Notes under the pieces: generated by a model
Seen by the model: only the letters and a program-made list of their open reading frames with translations
Database searches by the model: none
What the model was told of the DNA's origin: nothing
Shown: in pieces, positions 13,473 through 45,092 of the stretch
Layout: the number at the start of each line of letters is the position of its first letter
Numbering within the stretch: the stretch's first letter is position 1
Sequence record: MT496971.1
Strand: one strand, 5' to 3'
DNA length: 45,359 nt
Source: Escherichia phage Mt1B1_P10
Program-made: the position numbers and the translations under genes

Positions 13473-13488
13473 GTCTCACATGTGAGAC
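13473..13488 (-). promoter_or_regulatory. Conserved 16-bp palindrome GTCTCAC-RY-GTGAGAC (copy 1)
   Basis: gtctcacatgtgagac between two internal virion protein genes; about 9-bp stem with flanks, followed by a U-rich tract on the transcript. Confidence 0.55.
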
Positions 13489-29989: not shown

Positions 29990-30007
29990 CTATAGTGTCC
30001 AGTAAAT
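29990..30007 (-). promoter_or_regulatory. Phage RNAP promoter
   Basis: Minus-strand ATTTACTGGACACTATAGAAGAG. Confidence 0.75.
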
Positions 30008-30022
30008 ACCGGACACCGATTT

Positions 30023-30038
30023 GTCTCACACGTGAGAC
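30023..30038 (-). promoter_or_regulatory. Conserved 16-bp palindrome GTCTCAC-RY-GTGAGAC (copy 2)
   Basis: gtctcacacgtgagac directly after the stop at 30040 and just upstream of the promoter. Confidence 0.55.
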
Positions 30039-35081: not shown

Positions 35082-35097
35082 GTCTCACGTGTGAGAC
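35082..35097 (-). promoter_or_regulatory. Conserved 16-bp palindrome GTCTCAC-RY-GTGAGAC (copy 3)
   Basis: gtctcacgtgtgagac; extended stem of about 9-10 bp, then a U-rich tract. Confidence 0.55.
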
Positions 35098-36515: not shown

Positions 36516-36531
36516 GTCTCACACGTGAGAC
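36516..36531 (-). promoter_or_regulatory. Conserved 16-bp palindrome GTCTCAC-RY-GTGAGAC (copy 4)
   Basis: gtctcacacgtgagac just after the primase stop, in the 5' leader of the next gene. Confidence 0.55.
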
Positions 36532-36552: not shown

Positions 36553-38538
36553 TCAGAACTCACTTTCTTCATCGAAGTTAGTCTCTTCTATAGTGTCCGG
36601 TAAATCAGGCACCTCTTGCTGCCTTGCTTCACCTGTATCAAATGACTTAGTACGGGCTTGTGGTTCCATCAAACGTCCGGTCTGAATGTCACCTTTAAGC
36701 ATGACCTTGGTTCCAGTCCAGATACCTTGGTCGCGGTCTTTGACACATGAGATGTACGTGGTAGTCCTTTCGTCAAGCGTTTCAGCTCTTGTATTACGCT
36801 CAATCCCCAAGGCGTAAGATGCCCAGAATCCGATAGCGCCTGAGCCTCGGAAGTCAGAAAGGATAACTTCGCCACCTTCTTCGTGTTGGGTACGGTTTGC
36901 CGGAGGACGTGTAAGGTGTGATACAAGGAATATAGTAACCGGGTGTCGGTCTTTGATAGTACCAATCCGCTTGACGCATTCATCAAGTGCACCAACCTTC
37001 CCACCAAAAGCACGCTCATCTAATTTAATCCCCGTTAAGTTATCAATGATGATATTAGAAATGCCCATAGCCTCAAACTCTAGGCAAGTTTGCTCTACCT
37101 TTTCCATCGAATAGTCACCCTCTAGGTCAGCCACAAACAGCTTACCTGTATCAGCTACATAATCAATGGCGGCGTTAGCTTCTTCCTCGGTGTAGTCGAA
37201 CACCTCACGGTATCCATCTTCTTTCGGGTCGTTGGTTGGCGGTAACTCAATACGCTTATCAATCCACTTGCCGATAAAAGCACGGGACACCTTGACCATC
37301 GGGTCTTCTGTAGAAATGATGCCTACAGATTCACCGTGTTCTTCAATGAGGTGCTTAACTACTTCACGAAGGAACTCAGTCTTACCTACACCAGACCCTG
37401 CACCTACAATGATAAGCTGGTTCTTACGAATACCTAGCGTTACCTTGTTCAGCTTAGGCCAAGGCCATGATAGCCCTTGCTCTGGACGTGCAGCCTTGAG
37501 CTTATCCCTTTGAGATGCGATAGATTTAATCTGGCTACCAAAGACTTCATCAGATGACTTGGCATTAAACCAAGCATCAACAAACTCTTTAGCCTTGCCA
37601 GCCATCAATGCCTTGTTAGCATCTTTGCAACCAGAAGGGTATTCAAGGATATAGGATTTGCCAGGAAACAGGCGAGCCGCTTGCTGATTCTGCTTCTGCC
37701 CTACCTCATCTCCATCAAAACCCCATATAATCTTCTTAAATTGGGCGATGTGTTCACGGTTCTGTACTATCTCTTCAAGGCAAGACTCACCTTTATTGAC
37801 AGACCATACATGGTAAGGCTGGCCTTCCCACTTAGTACCCTTGGCAGAATCAAGGAGCATTTGCTGTGCTGCTAGTGCATCCAGTTCGCCGCCCACAATA
37901 AGCAAGCAATCCTTTCGTCTTCCCTTGTCTAACACGTGAGACAAAGTATTCATACCGAAAAGATCTTGCATACCAAAGAGTTTACCTAAATGACCAAACT
38001 TAAAGTCTTTAGGTAATGTGCGACACTTAGCGCCTACTAGCTCACCTTTCTCGAATCGTGGATAGTAATGCCGTGAGACTCTACCATCTTCATCGTGTCC
38101 GACACGTACATCGTACAATGCGCAAATGTCGCCGCGAATGTGTCGGGAAACAAGATTCTTACGCTTAAGCGTGAGGAACCATTCAACATCAAGTTTCCAC
38201 TCTGTTTCTTGGTCTGTCCTTTCTTGCTCATTCATGACCTCCCAACGGTCTTTCATACGCATGGCACCTAATGCCAATGCGCGGTCTTCTGTTGTCTTAA
38301 TCTTCCCTTCTTTAATGAGGTCTTGGAACTGACTAACAGTCCACTTAGTTGCCCCAAGAGGTAGGTCTAGAATATTAGAAGACTCTCCAGCTTTCTCATA
38401 ATAAGGCTTACCATTACTATGAAAATGTGCACGGTTGCAATATTTACCGCCGTCATCAAACCAGATTAAATGATTTTGGCTACGATCGTGACCATTGCGA
38501 GCACATTCGGGGCACACAGAATTATTTATAATAGCCAT
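36553..38538 (-). CDS. DNA primase/helicase (T7 gp4-like), 661 aa
   Basis: N-terminal zinc ribbon CPECARNGHD...CNRAH; Walker A GAGSGVGKT; acidic C-terminus ending ...NFDEESEF. Confidence 0.9.
   Translation of the reverse strand: MAIINNSVCPECARNGHDRSQNHLIWFDDGGKYCNRAHFHSNGKPYYEKAGESSNILDLPLGATKWTVSQFQDLIKEGKIKTTEDRALALGAMRMKDRWEVMNEQERTDQETEWKLDVEWFLTLKRKNLVSRHIRGDICALYDVRVGHDEDGRVSRHYYPRFEKGELVGAKCRTLPKDFKFGHLGKLFGMQDLFGMNTLSHVLDKGRRKDCLLIVGGELDALAAQQMLLDSAKGTKWEGQPYHVWSVNKGESCLEEIVQNREHIAQFKKIIWGFDGDEVGQKQNQQAARLFPGKSYILEYPSGCKDANKALMAGKAKEFVDAWFNAKSSDEVFGSQIKSIASQRDKLKAARPEQGLSWPWPKLNKVTLGIRKNQLIIVGAGSGVGKTEFLREVVKHLIEEHGESVGIISTEDPMVKVSRAFIGKWIDKRIELPPTNDPKEDGYREVFDYTEEEANAAIDYVADTGKLFVADLEGDYSMEKVEQTCLEFEAMGISNIIIDNLTGIKLDERAFGGKVGALDECVKRIGTIKDRHPVTIFLVSHLTRPPANRTQHEEGGEVILSDFRGSGAIGFWASYALGIERNTRAETLDERTTTYISCVKDRDQGIWTGTKVMLKGDIQTGRLMEPQARTKSFDTGEARQQEVPDLPDTIEETNFDEESEF
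36588..36605 (-). promoter_or_regulatory. Phage RNAP promoter (within primase 3' end)
   Basis: Minus-strand ATTTACCGGACACTATAGAAGAGAC. Confidence 0.7.
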
Positions 38539-39058: not shown

Positions 39059-39076
39059 CTATACTGTCCGGTAAAT
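39059..39076 (-). promoter_or_regulatory. Phage RNAP promoter (variant with G at -5)
   Basis: Minus-strand ATTTACCGGACAGTATAGATAAGAC, 31 nt upstream of the gp1.1-like ORF. Confidence 0.5.
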
Positions 39077-39081
39077 ACGAA

Positions 39082-39097
39082 GTCTCACATGTGAGAC
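39082..39097 (-). promoter_or_regulatory. Conserved 16-bp palindrome GTCTCAC-RY-GTGAGAC (copy 5)
   Basis: gtctcacatgtgagac immediately upstream of the promoter at 39059-39076. Confidence 0.55.
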
Positions 39098-39244: not shown

Positions 39245-39262
39245 CTATAGTGTCCGGTAAAT
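39245..39262 (-). promoter_or_regulatory. Phage RNAP promoter
   Basis: Minus-strand ATTTACCGGACACTATAGGATAG; the following ~150 nt have no ORF and end at palindrome copy 5. Confidence 0.65.
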
Positions 39263-39264
39263 AA

Positions 39265-39280
39265 GTCTCACATGTGAGAC
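39265..39280 (-). promoter_or_regulatory. Conserved 16-bp palindrome GTCTCAC-RY-GTGAGAC (copy 6)
   Basis: gtctcacatgtgagac between the RNAP gene end and the promoter at 39245. Confidence 0.55.
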
Positions 39281-39354: not shown

Positions 39355-41982
39355 TTATGCGAAGCAATAGTCAGATACTAAGATTTCGTTAAGGTCAAAC
39401 TCTCCTTGCTCTGGCACTTGGATTCCGGTGTCTACTAACCAGCGCTCTTCATGCTCATCTAACAGGCTTTGCAGAGCGTTACGGCCTTGATACATCTTCA
39501 CCATTTCTGCCCTTAGACTATCACGTAGGTCTGCGGTGCGGCCTGCATGAGTACCGAAAGAGTCATGGATAACTGCAATGGAGGTAATACCTTTATCCAC
39601 TAGGTCGCACACCGTTAGAATCAGGTGGCTAGCATCATGGCCGTGCACGAAGTTAGGAGCAGCAGCGCCCATCATAGCCGTTTCATCCACTACGTCCGTT
39701 TCAATCTGTAGACTCATCTTGATTTCTCCCATCAGGCAAGTGGATACGCGGAGCATATCAGTAGCCATAATCTTTTGTTGCAGAATGAAGCCTGTGGGCA
39801 AGGTATACTCTAAGCCTTCATTTCTTTTAGCTGCGAAACGGGCAAGTTGACGAATCATTTTCATTGCCACTATAGGAGCTTTAACCACTTCCGAAATAGA
39901 AGGCCAGATTAAAGCTGTCATATAGTTATAAGCTGCGCTAGGTGTCAGGCTGTCTTTGCGGTCATTATCAAAAGGATGTACAGGATTGGCGGTACGCCCT
40001 TCCGCAATAGCCCGTTGGGCCTCTTTTTCTTCCAAATCAACGATATAATCAATCACTGACTCACGGCAGGTTAGACGTGTGCTGCCGTAAGGTAGTGTCA
40101 TTACGGGCTTTTTGGTCAGGCCGCGAGTGATTCCTATCATATCCCACGCACTAGCCATGCTACGCAGTTCCGCACCTGTTAAAGTCACGCTGCCAGAAGT
40201 GAAGGTTTCCGCATCCTCTGCATTCATGTATGCATAATTCTTCTGAATTACTACCTGCGCAACGGCACCATAAATATCTTGAGGGGAGTCAGAGGGCTTA
40301 AGGTTTACCGCTTTCGCACCTACTGCATCGCGTAGCATAGCACTGTAGTGCTGGATACCAGAACAACTACCATCTTGATGGACGGGGAGGTGCGTCATGA
40401 ATTGGTCTTGCGTGCCTTCATCCAGTGCATCCAGATAACGCGCATATTCAAAGCACCAAGCAAGGAAGCCGTAAGGGGAGTCGGCATTTACCCATTGAGT
40501 GAAAGTAAGCGGATCCGCTGCAATGTCGCGGCACATGTCTTGAAATTCACTATCCAGCACGTTAGCGGTGCGCACGTCAAAAGTCTTCTTATCCCAACCC
40601 CAGTTATTAGCCCCGTTCACCAAAAACCATTTAAGCGCCTCAGCGCTATCAAGGCGCTGCCCTTCGGTAAAACGGAGCAATGCCTTGCCTAAGTCGTTTG
40701 ATTGCGGAGAGAGCGTGCTAGATTGCGCGTAGACGCGGCTGCGGCTGTCCAGTGCATACACGAAGTAGATGGCGTCAAACTGGCTGTATTTACGTGCCTG
40801 CCCGACCATGCGGACGGTCGCCGCCGATTTGCTGCCGCGCTTAGTTTCAGCGGTATACAGCTTGGTACATTCGCCTTTCCAGTTGATGAAGGCTTGCCAT
40901 TGTTCCGGCGTTAGCATCTCTTTAAGTTCACGGCCTCGCAGGTGCTGGAACTCTAACGGCACTGGATTAGCTGGCTTGTTCTCACGGTCGATGAGCGGTT
41001 TAAAGGAAGGCACACCATAGCCGAGGTCTAGACGTATAACGTCCTCCACAACCTGTAAAACCTCTTTATTAACCTGCCACTTAGTTGCCTGCAAAGCGTT
41101 AACAGCCTTATAAACGGCTGGCATTTGCTTTTTGGTCAGCTTGCGGACGTGCTCACGATTGCCTTTTACCAGACGAATACGGCTTGCTACTTTCTCAGTA
41201 TGAAACCCACCGTTAAAAGGTGATACCCAAGGGCGGGGAGGTATAACGCAAGGTGCATAGGCAGGGCTGAGCTGCGCTACATGTTCCTTAAATGCAGTTA
41301 TCCACTCTCCAACATGTTCACTGGTCTGTAAATAGTAAACACCATGCTTTCCGCCGTTAGTGCGCAAGGTACGAAGGAAGACAGGTTGACCATTGAAGAA
41401 TACACTATTCTCCAATATTTCGAGCAAGGTCATACCGATTTGCAGCAAGGTGTCTTTAGGCCATGCCTCCCAACGGGAGAAATCCGCGTCACGGTCAGCA
41501 ACAGATTTCTCAGCTACTACCGCTACGTTGTGCGCATGACGATAAGATTTAGTCTTGCTAGCCTTAAGTGACTTCTTCACTTTCTCAAAGTACTTAGCTG
41601 CGTGACCTTCCAGCTTGCTAAAACGTACTTGGTCTTCGATGCGGTCCGCTACATTCATAGCGATTGCTTGTAAGGTAACGTCTGTATTCAGCATATCCAT
41701 AACGATTTTCATGGTGATATATGCTGCCACTTCGTTTCCTACGCAGTTAATGAAAGCTAATGCACGTGGTGCACGACCTCTCTTGCCTTCGTATTCTTCC
41801 TTGTAAGCCTGAATACCTTCCGCCATAGGTGCGATTAGTTCGGACAATAAGCGGCGATTCCATGCCGTGTCTGATTCATTACCGGATGCAATCTGGCGTT
41901 GTTGGTCCGCTTCAAAGCGACGGATGCCGCCGTTAAACATTTCTTCTTCAAGTTGAAGTTGAATAGCGTGTAGGTCTTGCAT
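39355..41982 (-). CDS. Single-subunit DNA-directed RNA polymerase (SP6-type), 875 aa
   Basis: N-terminus [32 protein letters not shown] matches SP6 RNAP as recalled; catalytic motifs [16 protein letters not shown] and [11 protein letters not shown]; ATG with SD AGGAG. Confidence 0.95.
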
Positions 41983-42045
41983 CTTGTTTACTCCTAGTGA
42001 AAGAAACCTTAATAGGTGACACCTAAGAAGATGCCACCGATAAGG

Positions 42046-42930
42046 TTACTTAGTCAACTCTTCTACTGCCTCAGAGATTAAGGGCCATGCTTCATGGCCT
42101 TCACCGTAGCCTAGCTTAACCAGTTCGCGGCGTGCCTTGTTAACTGCTGTTTTCTTCGTTGCCTCCTCGGCGCTTAAACCTAAGCGAGCATAGAAGCAGG
42201 AAGATTTGAATTGCGGCAGCATAGGCGCGGCTGCCTTCTTGCTTTCGCGTGCGCTACTTAAGGAGGCGATGCGGTCATTAGCTGCCTGTAATTGCTCAGT
42301 CAGTGCCTTAATTTGTGCCAGCAGACCGGCAATAGCGGCATTCTCAGTATTAGCCGTGTTATCCAGCGGCGCTGACTTCGGTGCTTCCGGCTTGCTTTCC
42401 TCTTCCCACGGTGCTGATTCGTCGGCCTCCTGCTCGCTCGCGGGTGGCACTACCTGCGGCGCTTGCATTTCCTGTGATTCTGCGGCCCCCGTCGCGTTCT
42501 CCTGTGGTTTTACTGTCTCAGCCTTAGATTGTACCGTCTCAGCCTTTGTCTCTTTCTTAGGATCAATCAGGGCGTTTACGGCGTTAGTGTCCAGCTTGCC
42601 CTCTGCGGCGAGTTCTGCGGCCTTCTCCATGATTATATTTTCATCAGCGAAAGGAACAAGCGCCAGCATTACCCTCATAGCCACACCTTTAAAGCGTTCG
42701 TCTCCTTCAAAGACACGGGCTACACTCATCAGCTTGTAGCATTGTGCCTTCTTGATGCCGAACTCTGATTCTACATAAGCTAAAAAGTCTTTTTGACCTT
42801 CGAAATCACCGCGTAATTCATTCAGACAAGCGCCAACTTTGATGTAAGAAGTGCCGATATTGTCTAAGTGCTGCTTGATTTCAGCGGTTGCAGCTTCACG
42901 AACAGACAGGAGGACGTTTTCAGTAGTCAT
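42046..42930 (-). CDS. Hypothetical early protein with acidic/Pro-rich low-complexity linker, 294 aa
   Basis: Start moved to ATG at 42930 (SD AAGGTGA); track start is GTG; no recognisable catalytic motifs. Confidence 0.6.
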   Translation of the reverse strand: MTTENVLLSVREAATAEIKQHLDNIGTSYIKVGACLNELRGDFEGQKDFLAYVESEFGIKKAQCYKLMSVARVFEGDERFKGVAMRVMLALVPFADENIIMEKAAELAAEGKLDTNAVNALIDPKKETKAETVQSKAETVKPQENATGAAESQEMQAPQVVPPASEQEADESAPWEEESKPEAPKSAPLDNTANTENAAIAGLLAQIKALTEQLQAANDRIASLSSARESKKAAAPMLPQFKSSCFYARLGLSAEEATKKTAVNKARRELVKLGYGEGHEAWPLISEAVEELTK

Positions 42931-42993
42931 AGTAATCACCTTATATAGTGTAAGTAAATATCACATAGCCCACGTAGATAGGCTATAGGATAA

Positions 42994-43179
42994 TTACTCT
43001 CTCCAAAGGTGTTTTAATGCCTTATTGCAGTACTCATAAGTATGACTCTTACTGCATAAGGTGTATTTCTCAGCCCACTTTTGCTGAGCTTGTTCTATCT
43101 TGTAAGCGTCATAGCCAGCCTTTGCAGCAAAAGCAAGGACAAGTGAAGACAACAACAGGCATCCAATCAAGGTTTTCAT
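42994..43179 (-). CDS. Small early protein with predicted signal peptide, 61 aa
   Basis: ATG with SD AGGAG; MKTLIGCLLLSSLVLAFAAKAG hydrophobic N-terminus then a Cys-containing soluble part. Confidence 0.5.
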   Translation of the reverse strand: MKTLIGCLLLSSLVLAFAAKAGYDAYKIEQAQQKWAEKYTLCSKSHTYEYCNKALKHLWRE

Positions 43180-43370: not shown

Positions 43371-43703
43371 TTATTTTTCCTCTTCTTCGTCTTCATACCA
43401 AACTACATCGCTGTCATTTGGTACATCATTATAAAGAGCTTCATAGATGCGAGCTTGAAGAATCATGGTTACATCCTTCGTATCAGGAATCAAACCAGCG
43501 TCTTCAAACTCAACATCAATACCATCCGCAGCCATCACAGTAAAGATTTCGCTGTAATAAACTGGAACATGACTATCTACAACCTCATGCAGTGCATCAG
43601 AGTAATCATCATCTTCACGAATCTCATCGTACTTGATGCGCTCGTTGAATGCTTCAACAGTTGCAGCCAGAAGGTTGTAGTAAGCGTTAGCGTTGCGTTC
43701 CAT
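43371..43703 (-). CDS. ocr: Ocr-like DNA-mimic anti-restriction protein (T7 gp0.3 homolog), 110 aa
   Basis: ERIKYDEIREDDD...VPVYYSEIFTVMAADGIDVEFEDAGLIPDTKDVTMILQARIYEAL parallels T7 Ocr as recalled; highly acidic, ends in EEEEK; ATG with SD GAGGA. Confidence 0.85.
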   Translation of the reverse strand: MERNANAYYNLLAATVEAFNERIKYDEIREDDDYSDALHEVVDSHVPVYYSEIFTVMAADGIDVEFEDAGLIPDTKDVTMILQARIYEALYNDVPNDSDVVWYEDEEEEK

Positions 43704-44547: not shown

Positions 44548-45092
44548 AGTTAATACCTCATTCAATAAGTAGTTAACCACGGCATACATAGGTTACACTA
44601 AGCAAATTGTTAAAGAGCAATGTAAGCGCTAGTCTCTTCGTATGCCTTACTAGCTGGCTACTAGGTGCCTCAGCACCGCCTACGTGATGCATAGTATTAC
44701 ACTAAGATTATCTTGTCAACACTAAGTTACCATCACTAAGAATAAGATAGGTTGTCTAACGTGTTAGACTAAGGAAAAGCAATAGATACAGAGATAGGAT
44801 AGGCTAGGTTGGCTAGGTTTCTGGTGTTCCTCCTACTGCATCTTATTACTATTACCTACTCTTAGCGGTCTACCGACCGCGACCTAATTGCATCTTATAG
44901 CTTTAGCTATGCAATCACTAAGAGAAGACACTAAGACTTACTAAGGTACACTACTAAGTTGATACTAAGCTAAGCACTAAGGCTTTAACTAAGGTAGCCC
45001 ACTAAGTCTAACCTAAGCCATCCATCAGGATTATACCAAGGATACACAAGCGCGGTGAGTGTAGCGTAACGCAGTGGAGCGAAACGAACAGA

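Follow-up and report, generated by a model that had tools for sequence, protein, structure and literature searches.

Escherichia phage Mt1B1_P10 (MT496971.1), the whole 45,359 nucleotides of which are referred to below as the window, has a Vectrevirus genome (K1E/K1-5-like; Autographiviridae, Molineuxvirinae) that is read on the reverse strand in this record. Next to its SP6-type RNA polymerase (RNAP) gene it encodes a 294-residue early protein, the homologue of gp6 from phages K1E, K1-5 and SP6. On evidence that is computational throughout, we propose that gp6 is an early protein, conserved in SP6-like podoviruses, that binds specific DNA sequences as a dimer, regulates the phage genome and carries a J-like effector module, a reading to which we assign a probability of roughly 0.55. 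The adjacency of gp6 and the RNAP gene is stable in three lineages and down to about 30% identity; together with a helix-turn-helix (HTH) domain that covaries with a palindrome in the phage's own genome, this points to a regulator acting on that genome. A first-pass annotation had considered the protein a candidate for host shutoff or anti-defence. The J-like C-terminal domain leaves room for an interaction with host DnaK or DnaJ, but the evidence as a whole favours the phage genome as the target.

A recurrent palindrome and its covariation with gp6

A search for recurrent palindromes found GTCTCAC-N2-GTGAGAC at six places in the window and a variant of it at two more, giving eight sites (Table 1). 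Copies of the generic pattern GTC-NN-AC-N2-3-GT-NN-GAC (16-17 bp), for which an occurrence of 0.05 per genome is expected, number eight in the window, nine in SP6, five in PM116 and seven each in Era103 and Vibrio phage R25D, with a further five in the first 17 kb of Kp7 and seven in the first 17 kb of Pseudomonas phage Nerthus. None was found in the first 17 kb of T7 or ECBP5 or in the first 20 kb of CPP1m, and a recurrent palindrome of any kind was not detected in T7. Two types of site occur: the window, Era103, R25D and Nerthus have GTCTCAC/GTGAGAC, and SP6, PM116 and Kp7 have GTCCAAC/GTTGGAC. At least two copies were present in 12 of 80 matching IMG/VR loci; gp6 was encoded in six of these 12, two of the six proteins being only about 33% identical, and in none of the 68 loci with a single copy. 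The palindrome sequences were not found in the literature searched; the SP6 genome paper (Dobbins 2004) and that of Scholl (2004) lay outside this search and may mention the repeat. Readings as a CRP- or lac-operator-like element were rejected, as half-site order and spacing do not fit.

The arrangement of the sites is syntenic among these phages. In the window, R25D and Nerthus the leftmost, some 0.6 kb into the genome from its left end, precedes a TTGACA box by 25-34 nt. Two accompany phage promoters just after the RNAP gene, others are found after or inside the primase-helicase gene and near 10, 15 and 32 kb. Several copies are placed 1-15 nt upstream of phage promoters, the sequences of which differ among the phages. 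In the window, a short stretch directly following the RNAP gene is flanked by two of these promoters.

The relation between site and protein was analyzed in 46 loci that comprise 13 distinct variants of the recognition helix of gp6. With a lysine at residue 66 (eight helix variants) the middle bases of the half-sites are TC in 153 cases, TA in 19 and CA in none, and with an asparagine or histidine they are CA in 72 cases, TA in 26 and TC in none. Taking Gly58 as the glycine of the turn, residue 66 would occupy one of the positions at which HTH recognition helices typically contact bases. As evidenced by the trees of RNAP and gp6, which agree on the topology (Era103,(Kp7,(PM116,(SP6,window)))) with R25D and Nerthus outside, the window with its combination of Lys and TC is nested in a clade of the Asn/His and CA type, so that at least two coupled, independent switches must have taken place. 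Strict segregation with the site type was observed for three of 250 columns in gp6, T27, V32 and K66, all in the N-terminal domain, compared with one of 813 in DNA polymerase, none of 862 in RNAP and none of 653 in the primase-helicase (Fisher P=0.003 for the enrichment in gp6; 0.0004 for the N-terminal domain alone). Two phages with a different recognition helix possess 16-bp palindromes of their own at syntenic gene boundaries, GTCTAGT-NN-ACTAGAC, found four times in ECBP5, and GTTCGAG-AT-CTCGAAC, found three times in CPP1m. We consider it rather probable that gp6 binds the palindrome, and we treat its copies as candidate sites.

Some copies are found within genes. One occupies the same position in the primase-helicase coding sequence of the window (37927-37942), SP6 (locus L021, 7071) and Kp7 (L145, 7049), and copies in the RNAP genes of R25D (L022, 4567) and Nerthus (L147, 5159) share an offset of 1551 nt. 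Era103 has a near-copy inside its RNAP gene (L023, 5754), and ECBP5 has a copy inside its own gp6 gene (L146, 1372). Near the start of the CPP1m record (L149, 235-351) there are three tandem-spaced copies of TGTTATGTTATAACA, unrelated to the 16-bp palindrome at the gene boundaries of that phage.

Domain architecture and the J-like C-terminal domain

In the AlphaFold2 (AF2) model of gp6, the predicted local distance difference test (pLDDT) score is about 90 for residues 1-122, about 30 for residues 126-192, and again about 90 for a helix at 193-231 and the C-terminal domain at 239-293. Model and composition bear out the initial description of a folded N-terminal region, an acidic low-complexity linker and a helical C-terminal part, and we hold this overall architecture with high confidence. 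In an alignment of 13 sequences the N-terminal domain and, most of all, a C-terminal block (APMLPQF-S-C-YARLGL...KAF-ELV--GYG-GHEA...L) are conserved. Window gp6 gave nothing significant with Pfam, NCBIfam, PADLOC or PDB sequences (phmmer), the PADLOC-DB search returning no family at E<=1; the absence of kinase motifs noted at first sight holds, with no kinase match in Pfam or PHROG. Remote homology searches and structure prediction pointed to a ParB/KorB-like HTH and a J-like C-terminal domain, and to no homology with a structural or housekeeping phage protein.

The N-terminal domain is predicted to have the central HTH DNA-binding fold of the ParB/KorB superfamily. The putative HTH consists of a helix at 46-57, the turn F57-G58-I59-K60 and a recognition helix at 61-74 (KAQCYKLMSVARVF), and the sequence pattern of the domain, F..W....FGIKKAQ.Y.LMKVA.VF....F.GVAMRVL..L, recalls the HTH of ParB together with the helix that follows it. 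The protein begins straight with this helical domain; an N-terminal ParB/Srx-like CTP-binding domain is absent, as are Pfam matches of the ParB type in the window protein and in 124 family members. Without the CTPase domain, gp6 is therefore not a full member of the ParB/KorB family. Only two Pfam families recur among the 124 members, DUF3102 (PF11300), found in 35 at E<=0.01, and DnaJ (PF00226), found in 16. The best DUF3102 match has an E-value of 1.5e-7, and P0265 reaches 32.9 bits with a gathering score of 24.4; window gp6 itself has no such match, and to judge by the sequences gp6 would be remotely related to DUF3102 and not a scored member.

The linker is disordered in the model and net negative in 95% of the 124 members (median 59 residues, net charge -6). 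Its proline content is enriched 4.5-fold over that of the folded domains, and the sequence itself is not conserved; residues 126-200 of the window protein have a net charge of -10 with 11% proline and 19% glutamate. In the long helix that follows, the a and d positions of the heptads are taken by I200, L203, I207, L210, L214, A217, I221 and L224, which suggests a dimerising zipper.

Many family members have an N-terminal extension of 70-150 residues (ECBP5, L005 695-1729; L011, L010 and L012; P0254, P0270 and related proteins). By eye, the ECBP5-type extension resembles a helix-extended-helix (HeH/SAP-like) motif, and in one remote clade the extension is a lysine-rich, histone-H1-like tail. 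A protein with a DUF3102-like N-terminal domain and no J-domain is encoded at 418-1116 of L020, a contig of an unrelated phage with a DNA polymerase of the protein-primed type, and the family of the N-terminal domain therefore reaches beyond the Autographiviridae.

The C-terminal domain shows the J-domain fold with helices I-IV and an antiparallel hairpin of helices II and III. Comparison with J-domain proteins gave 6.9 for DNAJC27, 6.8 for RabJ, 5.6 for DNAJC12, 5.5 for Tim14, 5.4 both for HscB and for Tim16, which lacks the His-Pro-Asp (HPD) motif, 5.3 for ERdj5, 4.6 for SV40 large T antigen and 4.4 for Ydj1. When a profile of the whole family was run against all PDB sequences, the top 27 matches were J-domains (best E=8e-6), and hhalign of SP6-type C-terminal domains with canonical J-domains yielded a probability of 81% (P=1.3e-5). 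Relatives with the same N-terminal domain match Pfam DnaJ (gathering score 27.8 bits) at the same place: P0248 with 43.7 bits (E=3e-11) and P0254 with 31.7 bits, both carrying HPD, and P0155 with 26 bits and NPD. P0155 matches gp6 of K1-5 and K1E in tblastn at 1e-25 in a region that spans the C-terminal domain, and the PHROG 4571 profile matches P0155 over its full length at 4e-54 and the N-terminal domain of P0248 at 9e-19.

In the alignment, H33-P34-D35 of DnaJ correspond to Y275-G276-E277 of gp6, the loop of which is six residues shorter than that of DnaJ. The motif GYGxGH is invariant in 42 SP6-type members, and the helix II equivalents of DnaJ Y25 and K26 are retained as F or Y in 91 and as R or K in 120 of the 124 members. 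A census of 152 representatives counted about 48 loops of the type GY[G/x]xxH, about 78 that are degenerate in other ways, three or four with HPD or NPD, and 22 fragments or proteins without the C-terminal domain; HPD or NPD is found in only three or four of about 130 family representatives. Two members of one remote clade possess HPD, which is degenerate in their nearest relatives; loss of the motif is therefore recurrent. The HPD-bearing relatives reside on contigs of about 2 kb, and scans of viral, metagenome and genome collections for their genomic context were unproductive. The HPD motif is essential to the canonical stimulation of Hsp70/DnaK by J-domain proteins, and since it is lost, canonical stimulation of DnaK by gp6 is not expected. 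By its sequence, gp6 is J-like and not a bona fide J-domain protein, and we regard a link to the Hsp70 system as doubtful.

KorB of plasmid RK2 is a close parallel for the DNA-binding part. KorB is a dimeric protein with short, perfect palindromic targets in many copies near promoters, its OB operator being a 13-bp palindrome with 12 sites. In all this gp6 would resemble it, and one candidate site of gp6 precedes the promoter of the operon to which gp6 belongs. Unlike KorB, gp6 has no N-terminal ParB/Srx CTPase domain, is predicted to dimerise through the zipper and not through a KorB-type C-terminal domain, has a J-like domain and is an early gene product of a lytic phage, with binding inferred for gp6. 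With J-domain proteins, gp6 shares the fold and the signatures LGL, KA[FY]R and EA...L of helices I-III, but its J-like domain is C-terminal, scores below all Pfam thresholds and has Y-G-E in place of HPD. The combination of a J-domain with DNA binding is also seen in E. coli CbpA. Tim16/Pam16 lacks HPD as the C-terminal domain of gp6 does, although the two have only the fold in common, with no sequence relationship, and gp6 places it in a bacterial virus and in fusion to a DNA-binding domain. A 2026 review lists 49 unique phage J-domain sequences, of which Rki is the only one characterised (PMC13254874), and the gp6 family is not among the known phage J-proteins (PMC13254874, PMC3486835).

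Gene, family and genomic context

The gp6 reading frame runs on the minus strand from an ATG at 42930 to a stop codon at 42046-42048, with the Shine-Dalgarno sequence AAGGTGA 7 nt upstream of the start. An alternative GTG at 42939 falls within this sequence, and homologues likewise begin with 'MT'; the ATG at 42930 is therefore the real start. The region is 97.6% identical to that of ULINTec6 and 92-96% to those of K1E and K1-5, the protein is 97-99% identical to K1E gp6 and its ULINTec6 counterpart, and residues 1-294 match positions 1-287 of the 289 in the PHROG 4571 profile (E=9e-131). The RNAP gene follows the stop codon after 63 nt. Reading frame, Shine-Dalgarno sequence and gap, together with homologues in 213 phage records, confirm the early 294-residue reading frame next to the RNAP gene that the first-pass annotation had described.

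These homologues, found by tblastn, are nearly all of full length, with identity down to about 30%, and come from phages of Vibrio, Pseudomonas, Marinomonas, Aeromonas, Erwinia, Proteus, Klebsiella and Salmonella. An initial large homology search with gp6 had returned only matches above 90% identity; an exhaustive profile search puts the family at about 377 clusters at 50% identity. In 12 of 12 relatives with inspected context (Molineuxvirinae, Colwellvirinae, Gajwadongvirus and unclassified phages) gp6 is encoded upstream of the RNAP gene, either directly or separated by one small open reading frame (ORF), and the remaining early genes vary, among them Ocr, an S-adenosylmethionine-dependent methyltransferase, GNAT and HNH proteins and others.

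The same early-operon position directly upstream of the RNAP gene is held in T7 by gp0.7, and gp6 had been placed in that slot. However, gp6 has no kinase homology, and in Vibrio phage phiA318 a gp6 homologue and a gp0.7-type kinase, which matches PHROG kinase families at E=3e-47, are direct neighbours upstream of the RNAP gene. As phiA318 holds both, gp6 is not a positional replacement for the kinase.

In a genome paper the function of SP6 gp6 is given as unidentified (PMC4099482). Our literature search found no functional data on gp6 and only three papers that name DUF3102. GenBank records label homologues as 'andolysin', 'endolysin', 'late transcription factor VLTF-4' or 'periplasmatic protein', labels without support from any profile search; they are probably mis-annotations that arose from the low-complexity linker and were then propagated.

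Directly upstream of gp6, a 61-residue ORF (42994-43179, minus strand) corresponds to K1E gp5 and to PHROG 20059, a family of unassigned function, and its N-terminus is signal-peptide- or transmembrane-like (MKTLIGCLLLSSLVLAFAAKAG). An Ocr-like gene for a DNA-mimic anti-restriction protein (43371-43703, minus strand; Pfam ocr E=1e-31, PHROG 2568) is located two genes upstream of gp6. The gap between gp6 and the RNAP gene contains a bipartite RNA hairpin with a lower stem of 7 bp, an internal loop of 2/3 nt and an upper stem of 10 bp, an architecture that recurs with other sequences in SP6, Kp7, PM116 and Era103. We take this hairpin for a probable RNase III processing site of the T7 type, analogous to R1. 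A terminator scan found a hairpin of 10 pairs at 42964-42987 (minus strand) just 5' of gp6, which may be a second processing site flanking the gene. The 13-bp palindrome TAGGTGACACCTA in the gp6-RNAP gap was considered as an operator and rejected, as it has a single copy in the window, is not conserved in sequence among relatives and constitutes the upper stem of the conserved hairpin. In SP6, PM116 and Kp7 the gap also holds TTGAC(A/T) boxes.

Table 1. Features of the gp6 region and of the palindromic sites in the window (RBS, ribosome-binding site; MFE, minimum free energy)
Feature	Position	Strand	Basis or remark
Gene for the 294-aa protein, homologue of K1E/K1-5/SP6 gp6, PHROG 4571	42046..42930	-	ORF, profile, tblastn
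N-terminal helical domain, aa 1-122, predicted ParB/KorB-type DNA-binding fold, remotely DUF3102	42565..42930	-
Putative HTH, aa 46-74	42709..42795	-	secondary structure, conservation, covariation
Disordered acidic, Pro-rich linker, aa 123-192	42355..42564	-	pLDDT ~30
Long helix with leucine-zipper heptads, aa 193-231	42238..42354	-	AF2, heptad reading
C-terminal J-like domain, aa 236-294, preceded by the conserved P-M-L-P-Q-F motif (aa 236-241)	42049..42225	-
Invariant loop G274-Y275-G276-E277-G278-H279 at the J-domain HPD position	42094..42111	-	alignment
SP6-type single-subunit RNAP gene, conserved downstream neighbour	39355..41982	-	875 aa; Pfam RNA_pol E=1e-89, RPOL_N 4e-31
Bipartite RNA hairpin in the gp6-RNAP gap	42005..42047	-	MFE -22.5 kcal/mol, z -5.5
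Sigma70-like early promoter (TTGACA, 17 nt spacer, TACTAT)	44691..44719	-	consensus scan only
SP6-type phage promoters beside palindromes (TATTTACCGGACACTATAGG and variants)	39245-39264, 39059-39077, 29990-30008	-
Site 1, GTCTAACGTGTTAGAC on the + strand, GTCTAACACGTTAGAC on the sense strand	44754..44769		ends 34 nt upstream of the early promoter -35 box
Site 2, GTCTCACATGTGAGAC	39265..39280		1 nt upstream of phage promoter TATTTACCGGACACTATAGG, just after the RNAP gene
Site 3, GTCTCACATGTGAGAC	39082..39097		4 nt upstream of the second phage promoter
Site 4, one arm variant (TAAC)	37927..37942		inside the primase-helicase gene
Site 5	36516..36531		22 nt after the primase-helicase stop; flanks lengthen the stem, then T-rich tail
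Site 6	35082..35097		intergenic; extended stem and T-rich tail
Site 7	30023..30038		14 nt upstream of phage promoter TATTTACTGGACACTATAGAAG
Site 8	13473..13488		upstream of an RBS; extended stem and T-rich tail; syntenic with SP6 30569 and PM116 31971

Mode of action, alternatives and significance

If gp6 acts as proposed, two HTH domains joined by the zipper would bind the two half-sites, and GTCTCACATGTGAGAC should be preferred over GTCCAACGTGTTGGAC and over scrambled DNA. The outcome would be an operator network on the phage genome of the KorB/OB kind, including the site upstream of the early promoter of gp6 itself, from which feedback on early transcription by the host RNAP could be exerted. 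The sites might also serve to insulate or activate adjacent transcription units of the phage RNAP, or the region behind the RNAP gene that is equivalent to an origin. The J-like domain, tethered through the acidic spacer, would be the effector or interaction module; devoid of HPD, it would more likely be a protein-protein adaptor that binds a J-protein in the manner of Tim16, contacts DnaK in a non-canonical way or engages another partner.

Several observations weigh against this proposal. The covariation controls comprise three proteins only, with small phage ORFs left out, and the independent specificity switches are few. The protein is acidic overall (net charge -12, N-terminal domain -5), with the HTH segment alone being net positive. 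Window gp6 has neither a Pfam DnaJ match at E<=1 nor one to DUF3102, and a profile of SP6-type members only reaches no J-domain among the PDB sequences in a plain hmmsearch, so that the link to J-domains needs intermediates, profile-profile comparison or structure. HPD is gone in more than 95% of the family, which makes the connection to Hsp70 speculative, and the action at the sites could be repression, activation, insulation or an origin function. Finally, three copies in the window have an extended stem and a U-rich tail and are terminator-like, and in six of nine SP6 sites a T/G asymmetry between the arms corresponds to a U.G wobble in the sense-strand RNA. Because of these last two features, the palindromes may have a role at the RNA level, alone or in addition.

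This role is taken further by an alternative that we consider unlikely, in which the palindromes are RNA elements such as 3'-end hairpins, terminators or pause and stability elements without relation to gp6, and gp6 is a host-directed shutoff or anti-defence factor. The position of sites at gene boundaries, the terminator-like copies and the wobble-compatible asymmetry would all agree with it. Yet the arms do not differ between phages of E. coli, Erwinia, Vibrio and Pseudomonas, without the free compensatory drift expected of a plain hairpin, and arm mismatches other than wobbles do exist, always drawn from the same limited set of half-sites. The core stem has just 6-7 bp with a spacer of 2-3 nt, neither an extended stem nor a U-tract is seen in the copies beside promoters, and the covariation of site type with an HTH residue, with such columns enriched over RNAP, primase-helicase and DNA polymerase, is not accounted for. 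As to the host factor, an acidic protein with an acidic intrinsically disordered region is reminiscent of many host-targeting early proteins, and Ocr is also encoded in the early region; gp6, however, has been kept beside the RNAP gene across subfamilies where true anti-defence neighbours vary, and it has no PADLOC match.

We find it improbable that gp6 is mainly a modulator of host Hsp70 in the manner of Rki from phage RB43, with a J-like domain that sequesters or redirects DnaK or a J-protein (Tim16-like), for instance to stabilise sigma32, and an N-terminal domain that merely associates non-specifically with the nucleoid. The J-domain origin of the C-terminal domain, the retention of the Y25/K26-equivalent positions even in members without HPD and the canonical HPD in a few relatives would fit such a function, as would the Lys-rich and other N-terminal extensions of some relatives, which suggest generic nucleic-acid binding, and Rki shows that phage J-proteins are able to target DnaK (PMC3486835). 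Against it stands the repeated loss of the motif that canonical stimulation requires, and neither the covariation of sites and residues nor the tight linkage to the RNAP gene finds an explanation. Still less probable is an origin-binding or genome-organising factor analogous to large T antigen, with a J-like module that remodels replication or nucleoid complexes: in the window, as in SP6 and Era103, the pair of phage promoters that follows the RNAP gene is bracketed by two sites, at the place where T7 has its phi1.1A and phi1.1B promoters, the region of its primary origin, but the sites are spread over 0.6-32 kb and do not form one cluster, and gp6 has no helicase or ATPase domain.

The reading of gp6 as a regulator of the phage genome can be extended to a bolder version, which we consider unlikely: a genome-wide operator network in SP6-like phages, where the J-like domain recruits or blocks host DnaK/DnaJ or another remodeller at some eight palindromes beside the early promoter of the host type, phage promoters and the origin-equivalent region. 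If true, the network and its J-module would be the counterpart in a bacterial virus of polyomavirus large T antigen, likewise an early viral protein with a J-domain and a site-specific DNA-binding domain for palindromic sites at the early promoter and origin. The parallel is one of analogy only, as the domain order is reversed in gp6, helicase domain and HPD are missing and the DNA-binding folds are unrelated. The network would also explain the switch from host to phage transcription in phages without functions of the T7 gp0.7/gp2 type.

SP6-, K1E- and K1-5-type phages are the source of SP6 RNAP and serve in therapy directed at K1 E. coli, Klebsiella, Salmonella, Erwinia and Vibrio, and gp6, the sole early gene besides RNAP common to all of them, previously had no function assigned. 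The present analysis proposes one, together with a defined target of 16 bp and a residue predicted to determine specificity (K66 versus N/H), and it describes a regulatory element common to phages of several genera of Gammaproteobacteria as well as a large J-like family without HPD that is missing from current counts of phage J-domain proteins. If confirmed, the proposed function would revise the T7-derived model of the transition from early to middle transcription in these phages. It would further supply synthetic biology with orthogonal pairs of operator and repressor, of at least four classes of specificity, for use with SP6 RNAP, and it would mark sites to be left intact in the engineering of therapeutic phages.

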